This document shows positions 1-40,415 of a stretch of DNA of 64,000 bases, piece by piece. Within the stretch, counting starts at the first letter, position 1. Each line of letters begins with the position of its first letter. The position numbers and the translations under genes are program-made. This DNA is from Alphaproteobacteria bacterium. Lineage in GTDB: Bacteria > Pseudomonadota > Alphaproteobacteria > Rs-D84. Location of the stretch: assembly GCA_017471445.1 (NCBI GenBank), contig JAFUTJ010000018.1, positions 10,871-74,870 on the forward strand, written 5' to 3'. Under the pieces are notes generated by a model. The model was not told where the DNA came from. It saw nothing but the letters and a program-made list of their open reading frames with translations, and searched no databases.

Positions 1-405
1 AACAACGTATTTTGTAAAACTGTGGTCGTCGGTGCCCATATTCTGGTAAATCTGGGATTCAGACACATTCGAATTGTTTTGTGACACGTCATAGATTGCG
101 CCACTGCCAAAATTAATAAACTTGCCAAAATGGTCGCGGTTGCGTTCCATATTCTGAAACATGCGCACATTTGTATAGAACAGGTTTGTTAAATCCGCCG
201 CCGCACGATGCCCGGGCTTTACCGCCGTGTGCAACACCGCGTCAAAATACCGCCCATTAAAGAATTTATCAACCGATGCGGTGTCGGCAACATCCAAATC
301 GCGATGCCCCGGCGCAACGATATTATACCGTTCCCCCATGGATGATTCGCGAATGTTGCGACCGATAAAACCAGTACCACCGGTCAATAAAATTGTTTTC
401 TTCAT
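1..405 (-). CDS. NAD-dependent sugar epimerase/reductase (extended SDR), N-terminal 135 codons; gene continues past the left edge
   Basis: Minus-strand frame open to position 1. ATG at 405-403. N-terminus MKKTILLTGGTGFIGRNIRESS carries the Rossmann GxxGxxG motif. Starts 6 nt after the rfbH stop, so it belongs to the CDP-sugar operon. Confidence 0.7.
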   Translation of the reverse strand, partial: MKKTILLTGGTGFIGRNIRESSMGERYNIVAPGHRDLDVADTASVDKFFNGRYFDAVLHTAVKPGHRAAADLTNLFYTNVRMFQNMERNRDHFGKFINFGSGAIYDVSQNNSNVSESQIYQNMGTDDHSFTKYVV

Positions 406-12747: not shown

Positions 12748-12798
12748 AATTATAACACACCCACGGGCATATAACGAAAATAAAAAAATAACAAAATC

Positions 12799-12875
12799 TG
12801 GTCGGGGCGACAGGAATCGAACCTGCGACCCCTTGCACCCCATGCAAGTACTCTACCAGGCTGAGCTACGCCCCG
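12799..12875 (-). tRNA. tRNA-Pro (anticodon GGG)
   Basis: Hand-folded 77-nt cloverleaf: CGGGGCG acceptor, anticodon loop AUGGGGU, GGTTCGATTCC T-arm, encoded CCA. Confidence 0.9.
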
Positions 12876-13009
12876 ACATGCCCATAATACTAAACCACAA
12901 CAGCTAAAAATACAAATGATTTTTACACAACAATTTTGTTCTTGCACGAATCGATAAAATGCTATTAGTATGCGCATGTAATTTAACCGTCAGCCAAAGG
13001 AAAGGAACA

Positions 13010-13514: not shown

Positions 13515-14330
13515 TTAATTGGTTGGCACCAATTTCCCGCCCTGCCCCGGTTTTGCACTAATCCAACACGTTGCGCCATTACGTGGTACGGCCATGGCGT
13601 ATTTTGTGTGCTTTTCGGCATATATGTTTATTCCGTTCATTGCGGTGTCACCAATCCGGCACAGTGGTAAACACCGGTCATCGGATGTGTGACCGAATCC
13701 ATCGTCACATTCCCACGGACAATTTCCAACATCCGGTGTGCCCGCACCGGTATAGTGTGCATTTGCCGGGGCATTTGTGCATGGTTTTAGTTCAGAATAT
13801 TCACATATTGTCCTTGTGGCTATGCTTGCGGGATTACCATGAAAACAATCGGCCAGGTAATAACCTTTTGATACCCCAGTATATACGCTATATACATCGG
13901 TTGTACCACGATAGTAACTGTTCCATTCAACGCCGTCCCTAATCGTAGTGTAATAATGTGATTTAAGTATTCTATAGGTATTACCATCATTTAATGGCAT
14001 TTGTACAAAAACATTTACATAACACTCTTTCACTTTTGTTGCGTCACTCACACCACGTCCCGTATATGTTCCGGCGCCTGCCACTCCTACAGACACTGCC
14101 TCTGGATAAATAGTCGCCCAGTCGACATCGTTTGCGGGACACTTAATACGCATATTATCCCCAGGGCAATAATGACCGTTACCACATACAACGCAAACAC
14201 CCGTGCCGTCGTCATAATACCCGGCCTTGCATGTTGCGGCATGGGCCGTGCCGACACCGCCAACCGCCGCCAGTACACAAATCGCCATACCACGAATTTT
14301 ATGTTTATTATAACATATAAATCTTGTCAT
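13515..14330 (-). CDS. secreted cysteine-rich repeat protein
   Basis: Signal peptide ending in AHA. CKAGYYDDGTGVCVVCGNGHYCPG furin/GCC2-GCC3-like Cys spacing. SD GGGGGA lies 9 nt before ATG 14330. Confidence 0.65.
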   Translation of the reverse strand: MTRFICYNKHKIRGMAICVLAAVGGVGTAHAATCKAGYYDDGTGVCVVCGNGHYCPGDNMRIKCPANDVDWATIYPEAVSVGVAGAGTYTGRGVSDATKVKECYVNVFVQMPLNDGNTYRILKSHYYTTIRDGVEWNSYYRGTTDVYSVYTGVSKGYYLADCFHGNPASIATRTICEYSELKPCTNAPANAHYTGAGTPDVGNCPWECDDGFGHTSDDRCLPLCRIGDTAMNGINIYAEKHTKYAMAVPRNGATCWISAKPGQGGKLVPTN

Positions 14331-14608
14331 GATTTCATTCCCCCATTTGGTTTATTAAATTAAAAACGCCGCAACAGAAATCGCGGTCGGGGTGTTCAAC
14401 AATCATGTACATCTATGATTCCGGCGGCCTTGGTGGATTTTAAGCCATTTATAACCGTCGGCACCCCAACAATGGTTGGGGAATACATAAATGCGATGCA
14501 CGGCAAATGCCGACACCGGATGTACATGGGCCGTTGAAAGCCCCCTGAACCCAACTGATGCCGGGTTCATGCATAGATAATTTTAATGAAACGGTAAAAT
14601 AATTACAA
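14331..14608 (-). promoter_or_regulatory. promoter plus ~243-nt structured leader (copy B of a repeated leader)
   Basis: TTGTAA (14608-14603), 17-nt spacer, TAAAAT (14585-14580). Segments 1 CCCCAAC, 2 GUUGGGGUG, 3 CACCCCGAC, then the terminator. Shares sequence blocks with 40095-40415. Confidence 0.6.
14362..14386 (-). terminator. leader (attenuator) terminator of copy B
   Basis: CCGCGA-UUUCUG-UUGCGG followed by CGUUUUU, about 30 nt before the SD of the 14330 gene. Confidence 0.55.
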
Positions 14609-14632: not shown

Positions 14633-14657
14633 AAAAAACGCGGCATCGCCGCGTTTT
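14633..14657 (-). terminator. intrinsic terminator after rplI
   Basis: CGCGGC-N3-GCCGCG hairpin directly after the rplI TAA, followed by U6. Confidence 0.75.
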
Positions 14658-15263
14658 TTATTCTGCCGTGGCGGCATCCGCCGATTCCGACGGTTCTGAC
14701 TTTACATCAGATTCTGTTTTTTCTGATTCTGTTTCCGATTCAGCGGCCGGTTCTTCGTCAACCTTCTTGGTACCGAACGTCAAAACCTTGCCCGCAACCA
14801 ATGCGTCAATTTCATCTTGGGTTTGTGCAACATAAACACGCACCGGAACAATAACATCGGCATGCAATGCGATTTTTGTATCAAACGCACCAACCGATTT
14901 AATCGGGGCCCCCAACATAACCTGGGCGGATTCAACAGATACATTTGCAACATCTTTTAACATGCGCGCGATATCACGCGTAGACACCGAACCATACAAT
15001 TGACCAGTATCACCCGCCTGGCGTATCATGTGCAATTTTGCGTTACGCACCGCGTCAACATTCGCCTCGGCGGATTTACGTGCGGCTTCGTGGCGGGCCG
15101 TTAATTCTGCCTTTTGGGCTTCAAATAATGCGACGTTTTCACGTGTGTAACGCATCGCCTTGCCATTTGGCAATAAATAGTTACGTGCGAAACCAGTCTT
15201 TACTTCAACCGTATCGCCGATATTGCCCAGTTTTGTAATTTTTTCTGTTAAAATAACTTTCAT
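14658..15263 (-). CDS. rplI: 50S ribosomal protein L9 with acidic C-terminal extension
   Basis: MKVILTEKITKLGNIGDTVEVKTGFARNYLLPNGKA. About 50 extra acidic residues at the C-terminus. Confidence 0.9.
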   Translation of the reverse strand: MKVILTEKITKLGNIGDTVEVKTGFARNYLLPNGKAMRYTRENVALFEAQKAELTARHEAARKSAEANVDAVRNAKLHMIRQAGDTGQLYGSVSTRDIARMLKDVANVSVESAQVMLGAPIKSVGAFDTKIALHADVIVPVRVYVAQTQDEIDALVAGKVLTFGTKKVDEEPAAESETESEKTESDVKSEPSESADAATAE

Positions 15264-39044: not shown

Positions 39045-39073
39045 ACATCACGATTGTTCAGTGATGTTTTTTT
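39045..39073 (+). terminator. terminator after tRNA-Val
   Basis: ACATCAC-N9-GTGATGT followed by T7. Confidence 0.7.
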
Positions 39074-40094
39074 ATTCCCGCCCATAAATAAATTCACCGG
39101 TGCCCAAATTTGGGTAAAATTTTTGTTCAACCATGTCCCACATACCATTAGACGGCACAACATAATCACCAATACGCATACCACGCGGAATTGGCACATA
39201 TCGGCGAATAACAGATTGGTCATCACTAAAATTCGCATAATAGATTTTTGCCATACTATATTCCGTTGGATAACCGTTATTGCTATGTGCTGCGAATAAA
39301 TATACAGATACATTGGCTTTAATAGATTCTAAACCCAGCATCCCCGATGCGATTCCTGATATAGAAAATTTTTTGGTATTCATAAAATTTACATCACAAA
39401 TATGTCGTTCTGAATCAGATGCTTTTTCATGCCAGTCACAACCCAATGAATTACGGTGCGCAACACAAAATGGTGCACGTGCTATTGCACCCTGATGCGC
39501 CAACAAAAAATTGGGATTCCACACACCAAACACTGCGGCATCCGCTTTCCGTGTAATGTTTTCTGGGGTAAATGCAAAATCAATTTGTACACCGGTATTA
39601 CTGATTGGTATTATGTTGGTATCAATATATTGCGTTCCGGTGCTTTCCAAATACACATATGGGTCGGCATTAATCAGTTTACCGCCCGCAATTGTGTATA
39701 ACGAACTGTAATCTGCGTGTAATACAATGTCGTGCGTATATGCGTACGGAATTGTTGTGTTTGATGTAATAATTGTGTCACTGTCATCAACACGCCATGC
39801 GGGCGCATTGTTACAACCAACACCGGTTGTAAAGTTATTACCATACGCGGTGCTTTGTTGTGTTGGCGCATTCCCACCCGCCGGACAATCGTATGTTACC
39901 CTATATTGTTTCGGTATACAGAACTTTACATTTTCTGGTAATTCGGCATTTGCGAAATTGCCAACACAAAGGCCAAAACATAAAACACAAATGGCATTGA
40001 ATCCCACACGGCACATGGTTTCATGCGTATCTGTAACATTCTTGCCACCACACCTTGTTACCCTGCCCTTTGTTTCACATATACCATGTAACAT
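39072..40094 (-). CDS. secreted protein: beta-repeat-like N-module plus unknown C-domain
   Basis: Start set to ATG 40094, which has SD AAGGAGAG (the ORF-track ATG 40121 lies in the terminator U-tract). Signal-like CVLCFGLCVGNFANA. QYRVTYDC...YGNNFTT...AW module. Confidence 0.6.
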   Translation of the reverse strand: MLHGICETKGRVTRCGGKNVTDTHETMCRVGFNAICVLCFGLCVGNFANAELPENVKFCIPKQYRVTYDCPAGGNAPTQQSTAYGNNFTTGVGCNNAPAWRVDDSDTIITSNTTIPYAYTHDIVLHADYSSLYTIAGGKLINADPYVYLESTGTQYIDTNIIPISNTGVQIDFAFTPENITRKADAAVFGVWNPNFLLAHQGAIARAPFCVAHRNSLGCDWHEKASDSERHICDVNFMNTKKFSISGIASGMLGLESIKANVSVYLFAAHSNNGYPTEYSMAKIYYANFSDDQSVIRRYVPIPRGMRIGDYVVPSNGMWDMVEQKFYPNLGTGEFIYGRE

Positions 40095-40415
40095 AATATG
40101 CCTCTCCTTTTTCTTAATCATGAATAAAAAAACACCGCCGGTGGGAACAACGGCGGTCGGGGATTAAGAAAATCATAACAAACAATGATCCCGTGACCTT
40201 TGGACAGGTGCCCTGTTATATAATCACAGCCCCCCGACCGTCAAAAAAAATGTTGGTCGGGCGATAAAATACATGGCGCACATGCGCCGACGTATTCTTC
40301 GTACATCGGATTACGGTATGATCACACCGGTTTGTTATGGGCTTTCTTACGACCCCGAACCCGTCATCCACACGGATTCATTACGAATACTACAAAAAAG
40401 CACAAATAAATACAA
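40095..40415 (-). promoter_or_regulatory. promoter plus ~285-nt structured leader (copy A of a repeated leader)
   Basis: TTGTAT (40415-40410), 17-nt spacer, TAGTAT (40392-40387). Segments 1 CCCGACC, 2 GGUCGGGG, 3 CCCCGACC, 4 terminator. Shares blocks with 14331-14608. Confidence 0.6.
40126..40157 (-). terminator. leader (attenuator) terminator of copy A
   Basis: ACCGCCG-N10-CGGCGGT followed by GU7, about 30 nt upstream of ATG 40094. Confidence 0.65.

Follow-up and report, generated by a model that had tools for sequence, protein, structure and literature searches.

What is the role of a long untranslated leader that stands, on the same strand of one bacterial contig, before two unrelated genes? 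The stretch of DNA concerned, referred to here as the window, comprises 64,000 nt of contig JAFUTJ010000018.1 (assembly GCA_017471445.1) of an alphaproteobacterium of the order Rs-D84, an uncultured metagenome-assembled genome (MAG) from a ruminant gut study with a scaffold of 181 kb. One leader (copy A) lies at 40095-40415 and the other (copy B) at 14362-14608, both on the minus strand. The original prediction, made from the sequence of the window, described them as copies of one leader with its own promoter and a four-segment terminator/antiterminator switch. The analysis reported here identifies the leader as a real structured RNA, present in many copies throughout the lineage and absent from Rfam, with covariation pointing to two alternative folds. 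We propose that it is a cis-acting conditional-termination switch before genes for surface and secreted proteins, a reading to which we assign a probability of roughly 0.55.

A lineage-wide family of leaders

The likeness of copies A and B resides only in short blocks and in structure, and blastn detects no similarity between A and B or between A and the window. A nucleotide profile (nhmmer) built from 61 copies of other genomes only, the window being excluded, matches A at 40129-40380 (E=6e-33) and B at 14364-14568 (E=2.4e-28), both at full length. The proteins encoded downstream of the two are unrelated (BLASTP E=0.11). The resemblance between the leaders is real and not a matter of chance. 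Neither nhmmer nor R1, a covariance model of the leader 3' domain, reveals a third copy in the 64-kb window; a weak R1 match at 12784-12880 (minus strand, E=0.12) was rejected as such, as it coincides with a tRNA gene (12802-12875).

Beyond the window, one exact-pattern scan of 185,579 species-representative genomes gave 58 loci, all of which, except one chance match, belong to MAGs of gut or rumen Alphaproteobacteria, several of them named 'Candidatus Enterousia'. In 585 kb of related loci, R1 recovers 75 copies, which belong to about 45 uncultured Alphaproteobacteria of gut or rumen, and further leaders were found on contigs carrying paralogues of the protein encoded after copy B, before related as well as unrelated genes. 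The window has two copies per 64 kb, and the MAG CAJOGD01 has seven in the approximately 40 kb sampled. Genomes of the order Rs-D84 measure 0.75-1 Mb, and these organisms ('Ca. Enterousia') are suspected of depending on other cells (PMC12306168). Further copies in relatives, with covariation among them, were what the original prediction had proposed to look for, and both were found. Its view that what is conserved is the leader as such, equipped with a promoter and an intrinsic terminator of its own, is supported.

Elements of the leader

The elements of copy A were all read on the minus strand within 40095-40415, and those named by the original prediction (promoter, segments 1-3, terminator, Shine-Dalgarno (SD) sequence and ATG 40094) are found where it had placed them:

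40410..40415, minus strand: -35 box TTGTAT, a hexamer common to five family copies, at a conserved position
40387..40392, minus strand: -10 box TAGTAT with TG before it, at the family-wide position
40357..40379, minus strand: H1, the 5' hairpin GAAUCCGU-loop-ACGGGUUC (minimum-free-energy (MFE) fold; compensatory changes with RNAalifold)
40339..40356, minus strand: seg0 GGGG and the local hairpin H2 (GGGU..GCCC), with covariation in H2
40343-40350, minus strand: 5' strand of P2b, GUAAGAAA (comparison of cognate stems)
40330..40339, minus strand: 5' strand of P2c, CAUAACAAAC, partner of 40174-40183
40262..40329, minus strand: variable central domain P4, in copy A two hairpins including UACGU-GGCGCAUGUGCGCC-AUGUA (MFE fold)
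40255..40261, minus strand: segment 1, CCCGACC, partner of segment 2 in fold I
40230..40239, minus strand: segment 2, GGUCGGGGGG, partner of segment 1 (fold I) or segment 3 (fold II)
40239-40232, minus strand: core of segment 2 as originally given, GGUCGGGG, confirmed by reading
40191..40229, minus strand: P2' hairpin with A-rich internal loop (CUGUGAUU AUAUAAC..CCAAA GGUCACGG), in both folds, with compensatory changes
40171..40190, minus strand: P3' hairpin GAUCAU-UGUUUGUU-AUGAUU of fold II (covariation)
40174-40183, minus strand: 3' strand of P2c in fold I, GUUUGUUAUG, inside the P3' hairpin
40165..40171, minus strand: 3' strand of P2b, UUUCUUA, which is junction J3/1 in fold II (MFE fold and comparison of cognate stems)
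40155..40162, minus strand: segment 3, CCCCGACC, partner of seg0 GGGG (fold I) or segment 2 (fold II)
40126..40157, minus strand: intrinsic terminator ACCGCCG-N10-CGGCGGU (40157-40134) with U7 (40132-40126), read and found by terminator scan
39072..40109, minus strand: SD sequence AAGGAGAGG (40101-40109) and the open reading frame (ORF) starting with ATG 40094, by reading

The spacer between the -35 and -10 boxes of copy A is 17 nt, and transcription probably starts at about 40381-40384. This promoter fails the stringency of the promoter scan (3/6 matches in the -35 box), though it stands at the family-wide position. The terminator scan recovers the terminator at 40155-40133; the final 3 nt of segment 3 are part of its stem. 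Compared with dinucleotide shuffles, copy A folds at z = -5.3 and copy B at z = -5.0. The corresponding elements of copy B are:

14362..14608, minus strand: whole copy (promoter scan, folding and profile search)
14580-14608, minus strand: promoter TTGTAA-17-TAAAAT, recovered by promoter scan
14546-14569, minus strand: H1
14519-14528, minus strand: 5' strand of P2c, CAUGUACAUC
14475-14481, minus strand: segment 1
14462-14470, minus strand: segment 2
14404-14413, minus strand: 3' strand of P2c, GAUGUACAUG, partner of CAUGUACAUC
14386-14394, minus strand: segment 3
14369-14386, minus strand: terminator, with U-run at 14362-14366 (terminator scan)
13515..14330, minus strand: 271-aa Cys-rich secreted protein of a family with more than 25 paralogues

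On the other side of copy B, positions 14658-15263 (minus strand) encode ribosomal protein L9 with a long acidic Ser/Glu-rich C-terminal tail (..EEPAAESETESEKTESDVKSEPSESADAATAE); the L9 terminator hairpin occupies approximately 14633-14657, and the promoter of copy B begins directly after it.

Throughout the family, the elements follow one another in the order H1, GGGG with H2, 5' strand of P2c, P4, hairpin of segments 1 and 2, P2', P3', U-rich stretch, segment 3 and terminator, over a length of 193-286 nt (median 221). The counts for promoter, P2c, MFE folds and upstream open reading frames (uORFs) given here refer to 63 full-length copies. A promoter of the form TTGnnn-16..18-TAnnnT is present in 52 of them, and in 48 of these 52 the -10 box ends 6-8 nt before H1, a spacing that places the predicted start of the RNA at H1. 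The start codon lies at a median of 26 nt from the leader end, so close that no room is left for a second promoter; in 53/64 copies the distance, on the same strand, is at most 50 nt. All 75 copies have one internal orientation relative to promoter and gene. The family is demonstrated to exist, with conserved positions for promoter and terminator. P4 varies among copies and in some is reduced to a single short hairpin. The CCGGUGU-type blocks, originally counted as shared core, turned out to be part of this variable central hairpin and are not universal; likewise, the central block CGGUGCAAAGCAUCGUAAUCC was rejected as a conserved ligand core, being merely the stem of the variable hairpin and absent from minimal copies. 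Variants of the leader also exist, among them the E-type subtype, in which segment 3 is CCUCCAACC.

Two alternative folds

The MFE folds of A and B show a long-range helix, P2, between the 5' region and the region before segment 3 (fold I). In copy A, its part P2c pairs CAUAACAAAC (40339-40330) with GUUUGUUAUG (40183-40174); it is extended by P2b (AAGAAA:UUUCUU in A, UUCAAC:GUUGAA in B) and further by GGGG:CCCC, so that P2 as a whole (P2a/b/c) amounts to about 20 interrupted bp. The 5' strand of P2c, the 'lock' strand, sits just after GCCCAU. The 3' strand is the N8 of the conserved block GGRAUCAU-N8-AUGAUU, the 'loop' of that hairpin. Every one of the 63 copies has a P2c of 7-11 contiguous bp (mean 9.2 bp), formed by 53 distinct sequences. 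Non-cognate strands, swapped between copies, give only 4.7 bp, and the duplex energy is -11.8 kcal/mol for cognate against -3.6 kcal/mol for non-cognate pairs; for P2b, cognate stems have on average 7.7 bp and non-cognate stems 4.8 bp. P2c is present in the MFE structure of 60/63 copies, that is, fold I is the MFE fold, and the terminator is present in that of 87%. Since this most stable fold includes the terminator, the default state would be to terminate. A pseudoknot of the H1 loop GGGA(A/U) with the 5' flank of segment 1 was rejected, showing no covariation.

Within a genome, the lock sequences (window 40330-40339 and 14519-14528) differ among all copies seen, four in the species of the window and five in CAJOGD01. 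These differences may result from selection against pairing in trans between leaders.

In fold II, segments 2 and 3 form a G/C-rich closing helix of 8-10 bp, P1, round two hairpins. RNAalifold, applied to a MAFFT alignment, independently predicts H1, H2, the helix of segments 2 and 3, P2' and the terminator. All six pairs of H1 have compensatory changes in this prediction, H2 covaries (GC to AU in 6 copies), and so do 4/5 pairs of the terminator across the family. The three-way junction of P1, P2' and P3' is 91-99% paired, with compensatory changes in 18 of its 22 pairs. In the model-fitted alignment of the 75 copies, 96.3% of the cells of fold II are paired, a compensatory change occurs in 22/27 pairs and none of 500 shuffles reaches the observed value, pair counts that are inflated by the fitting of this alignment to the tested structure; slid controls on it pair at 30-50%. 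P2' has compensatory changes in 9/9 pairs on the same alignment, and all five pairs of P3' covary. With the MAFFT-only alignment, the corresponding figures for fold II are 92.5% of cells, 11/24 pairs and 3 shuffles out of 500.

Segments 1, 2 and 3 vary together, from GGGG/CCCC to GGGA/UCCC, GGGAAG/CUUCCC or GGAGG/CCUCC, and segment 2 has either segment 1 or segment 3 as its partner. Within the family, compensatory changes preserve all three pairings of the original prediction, 1:2, 2:3 and 3:4. Furthermore, the loop and 3' arm of P3' are the 3' strand of P2c, and the loop of H2 is the 5' strand of P2b; sharing nucleotides in this way, folds I and II are true alternatives, both under selection. 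G-U pairs outnumber A-C mismatches in the helices by far (17:4, 8:0 and 208:17), and therefore the structure acts in the sense-strand RNA and not in the DNA. Both sets of pairings are real. The four-segment logic first put forward largely holds; it was incomplete in that the dominant helix P2 had been missed and that the proposed switch consists of two global folds.

Relation to known RNAs

At the gathering thresholds of Rfam 15 (4227 families), only four tRNAs are found in the window, and even with cmscan run at E<=10 neither A nor B matches any riboswitch or T-box family. The earlier impression that the leader does not fit a series of riboswitch consensus sequences is borne out. Below threshold, its 3' half resembles sRNA-Xcc1 (RF02221), an RNA of about 88 nt from integron cassettes of Xanthomonas, known as well from Xylella, Neisseria, Aeromonas, Pseudomonas and the phage APSE. 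It is described, going by the title of a 2011 article of Chen et al., as a trans-acting small RNA (sRNA) under HrpG/HrpX control and not as a leader. As to its size, it has been detected as an 88-nt RNA (PMC2996969). The RF02221 model aligns over its positions 1-87 with copy A (37.1 bits, E=4.7e-5) and with copy F (41.9 bits, E=2.7e-6). No tested copy reaches the gathering score of 53 bits, B having no match at E<=10 and C and D having none either; four genuine Xcc1 loci score 69-73 bits with the same model. Conversely, R1 matches two genuine loci clearly (L068, 37.5 bits, E=1e-8; L069, 36.5 bits, E=2e-8) and two weakly (L067, 13.6 bits; L070, 9.9 bits). As the match is sub-threshold and only partly reciprocal, the leader is not filed as a member of RF02221.

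The three-way junctions of the two RNAs have one layout: the closing helix pairs a G-rich with a C-rich strand, the first hairpin has the internal loop AUA.AA.A / GAA, the second hairpin is short, and the U-rich junction has AAC at its end. Another hairpin comes after it. Like the leader, sRNA-Xcc1 is found before genes of the same strand, at about 40 nt (BRO, a hypothetical protein, symE and ORF6N), and is multi-copy in some genomes. In contrast, the junction of the leader makes up just the 3' half of a longer RNA, with its start 110-170 nt upstream; that its only conserved promoter lies at this distance argues against an independent transcript of about 88 nt. In genuine Xcc1 loci, complementarity of an upstream lock strand to the second hairpin is not above that of shuffles, and hence only the leader family has the 5' domain and fold I. 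The 3' half of the leader is a distant relative or an analogue of the Xcc1 junction, placed inside a larger two-state leader.

Two observations concern sRNA-Xcc1 itself. The loop of its second hairpin is complementary to the ribosome-binding site or start region of the next gene, which lies about 40 nt downstream (L070:1498-1640, L069:1482-1620, L068:1485-1620). The match has 11 bp in L070 (p ~0.03), whereas those in L069 (8 bp) and L068 (7 bp) do not exceed shuffles. A possible action of Xcc1 in cis, on translation, is hinted at. In Neisseria gonorrhoeae (L067:1707-1798), a degenerate second Xcc1-like element follows the genuine one at about 140 nt; it is nearer to the Rs-D84 3' domain (GGGGGUGC...UUUUGAACACCCCC and a terminator) and scores 24.5 bits with R1 and 33.9 bits with the Rfam Xcc1 model.

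The leader would work like a platform made up of a terminator, an antiterminator and an anti-antiterminator, as known from the pbuE adenine riboswitch and from the PyrR-controlled pyr leaders. Riboswitches and attenuators of this type share with the leader an own promoter, a long 5' untranslated region, an intrinsic terminator directly ahead of the ORF, a conserved junction with a closing helix that shares nucleotides with the terminator stem, and a third element that sequesters the antiterminator (here P2 and the hairpin of segments 1 and 2). The leader differs from them in that its anti-antiterminator is an unusually long helix of hypervariable sequence that extends over the entire element, in that the overlap with the terminator is just 1-3 nt, and in that surface and secreted proteins would be controlled instead of one metabolic pathway. 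Specialized NusG paralogues (RfaH/ops, LoaP and UpxY of Bacteroides) also make use of leader RNAs, in operons for polysaccharides and surface factors. Their leaders are likewise long, contain terminators and precede surface-polysaccharide and secreted-factor genes, many loci in a genome having the same leader type. Unlike the present leader, these systems depend on a dedicated protein together with short signals in DNA or RNA, and do not have two covarying global folds.

Genes behind the leaders

About 48 of 64 downstream ORFs (at least 80 aa) open with a signal-peptide-like hydrophobic stretch. Three families are recurrent, one that is Cys-rich with CxxGYY/YCPGD, one with '..ADRKTATSLKYV..' starts and one with '..T..YVD..KQ..' starts; none of the three has a Pfam match. 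Other downstream genes encode enzymes for surface polysaccharides, namely GT2 glycosyltransferases and a Stealth capsule-type enzyme, as well as a PLD-like protein and an XRE-type regulator. The protein after copy A has 340 aa, with a hydrophobic stretch at residues 33-47 behind a polar start of 32 residues; it has no Pfam match, and a paralogue lies after copy H in L007. Some paralogues without a leader have a plain promoter at the equivalent place. Judged by the predicted products, the leader is associated with genes for the surface and for secretion.

Several loci have additional elements. Four copies are not followed by an ORF (L009:7180-7380(-), L017:895-1095(+), L023:2535-2735(-) and L031:1810-2010(-)) and are instead succeeded by a conserved element of about 110 nt (GGGCGG..GCGCCUUCUCA..CCGCCC..ACUUCUAACAAUCAC) with its own strong terminator, for which neither Rfam nor ARAGORN gives a match. 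A leader-controlled sRNA with CU-rich, anti-SD-like motifs is one possible reading. Leaderless secreted-protein paralogues carry another 5' element (L007:9860-10000, L008:10030-10130 and L004:10869-10985) composed of two hairpins, GUGCACCAAAAAA-CCACCG-UUUUUUGGUGCAC and GUGCACAAAAAAA-CGGUGG-UUUUUUUGUGCAC, with mutually complementary loops; the called gene start in L008 overlaps it and is therefore probably wrong. Finally, genes of the '..ADRKTATSLKYV..' surface family (L014, L019, L040 and L063) have an extra 150-200 nt between leader terminator and start codon, with the repeated block GCGAAAAUUUGUAUGCGAGAAYGAGCGUAAGCGAAGUUCAAACAACUACAAAUUUGCGCGC.

Proposed mechanism and rival explanations

According to the proposed mechanism, the leader would be transcribed from its own sigma-70-type promoter, with the intrinsic terminator placed before the start codon of the controlled gene. 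In fold I, the most stable and presumably the default state, the region just after H1 would pair with the region just before segment 3, and segment 1 would lock segment 2 in a local hairpin. The GACC of segment 3 would be left free in this fold, so that the full terminator forms and transcription stops. In fold II, the 5' strand would refold as H2, and segments 2 and 3 would close the three-way junction (P1, P2' and P3'); as the lowest 1-3 bp of the terminator stem, beside the U-tract, would be taken up by P1, RNA polymerase would read through. Fold II would thus be the ON state. A putative effector, be it a small ligand or a protein of the RNA-binding or antitermination kind, could recognize the junction or the 5' domain and shift the balance to fold II, and it could be imagined that co-transcriptional kinetics provide an alternative route.

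Several points weigh against this mechanism, in addition to the inflation of the pair counts by the fitted alignment. Fold II lags behind fold I in stability by 7-12 kcal/mol: forcing it costs a mean of 11.8 kcal/mol, and 7.3 kcal/mol before the 3' arm of the terminator exists, so that strong stabilization or a kinetic route is needed. P1 and the terminator stem share merely 1-3 nt, at the base of the stem, the outermost pair of P1 exists in only half of the copies, and the terminator still forms in about 48% of them when P1 is forced. The mutual exclusivity claimed in the original prediction is accordingly upheld for the competing partners of segment 2, and is only partial for 2:3 and 3:4. 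Furthermore, a classical large ligand pocket is unlikely in the central domain, given its variability and its possible reduction to a bare hairpin. No candidate ligand or protein emerged for the putative effector, a dedicated protein not having been searched for, and the hosts are all uncultured.

Among the rival explanations, the leaders could be stand-alone sRNA genes, acting in trans or sequestering a protein as reported for sRNA-Xcc1, with a constitutive terminator and incidental read-through. Each copy does have a complete promoter and terminator, the stable fold I retains the terminator, four copies lack a following ORF, and the 3' domain resembles an RNA detected at 88 nt (PMC2996969). 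This explanation is nevertheless unlikely, considering that in 53/64 copies a start codon follows on the same strand within 50 nt, without space for another promoter, and that leaderless paralogues have an ordinary promoter at the equivalent place. A simple sRNA would not need two exclusive conserved folds either, and the hypervariable P2c offers no conserved seed for pairing in trans. P2 might, on the other hand, mainly be a determinant of processing or stability, for example an RNase III site that sets the half-life of the mRNA, the terminator being merely leaky. An interrupted duplex of conserved structure and variable sequence is the usual look of RNase III substrates; P2, with about 20 interrupted bp, conforms to it, and an RNase III gene is present on the related contig L008. 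Such a role is rather improbable as the main one, for it leaves fold II, the competition between 1:2 and 2:3 and the place of segment 3 in the terminator stem unexplained, and cleavage of P2, upstream of the terminator, would not by itself release the mRNA. Neither of these two surviving rivals explains the conservation of two exclusive folds.

Two further possibilities were rejected. In leader-peptide attenuation of the trp type, which the original prediction had kept as an alternative, a ribosome on a uORF over segment 1 would free segment 2 for segment 3. The predicted ORF of 16-19 codons over segments 1-2 of copy A does exist, and several other copies have ORFs there, but 22/63 copies have no ATG ORF across segment 1, the existing ones are spread over three frames (30/26/25), SD-like sequences occur in only 4 copies, and segments 1 and 2 are separated by a loop of freely varying length. 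The survey of uORFs in the 63 copies makes this mechanism highly improbable. Scarcely any more credit can be given to a DNA-level element, that is, an invertible promoter, a miniature inverted-repeat transposable element (MITE) or a recombination site. Perfect inverted repeats of 7-11 bp, about 150 bp apart and before surface-protein families, superficially resemble phase variation. However, 75/75 copies have the same internal orientation, and the repeats, with 53 sequences in all, differ between copies of one genome and therefore provide no common recombinase site. The complementarity also runs on through the bulged P2b and P2a, and the helices accept G-U and not A-C, as expected of sense-strand RNA. 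Conditional termination in cis remains our preferred reading.

Meaning for Rs-D84 and for sRNA-Xcc1

Rather speculatively, and with less confidence than in the switch itself, the Xcc1-like junction might be the sensor of a new class of riboswitches or RNA sensors. In Rs-D84 it would have acquired a 5' lock strand and would gate much of the secreted and surface proteome, locus by locus, from one signal. Extended to sRNA-Xcc1, this reading would make the widespread elements of that kind in Proteobacteria, integron cassettes and phages cis-acting sensors of the same signal instead of trans-acting sRNAs. For RNA biology, the leader is a large orphan switch candidate with unusually clear support for two alternative folds and with a hypervariable lock helix, possibly kept distinct between copies against cross-pairing, and it has a link, open to testing, with sRNA-Xcc1, a poorly understood family found in pathogens of plants and animals and in mobile elements. 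If the copy density is typical, one leader type would control tens of genes, mostly for lineage-specific secreted and surface proteins and for surface-glycan enzymes. If so, it would be the main known regulatory device for surface presentation in Rs-D84 and 'Ca. Enterousia'.

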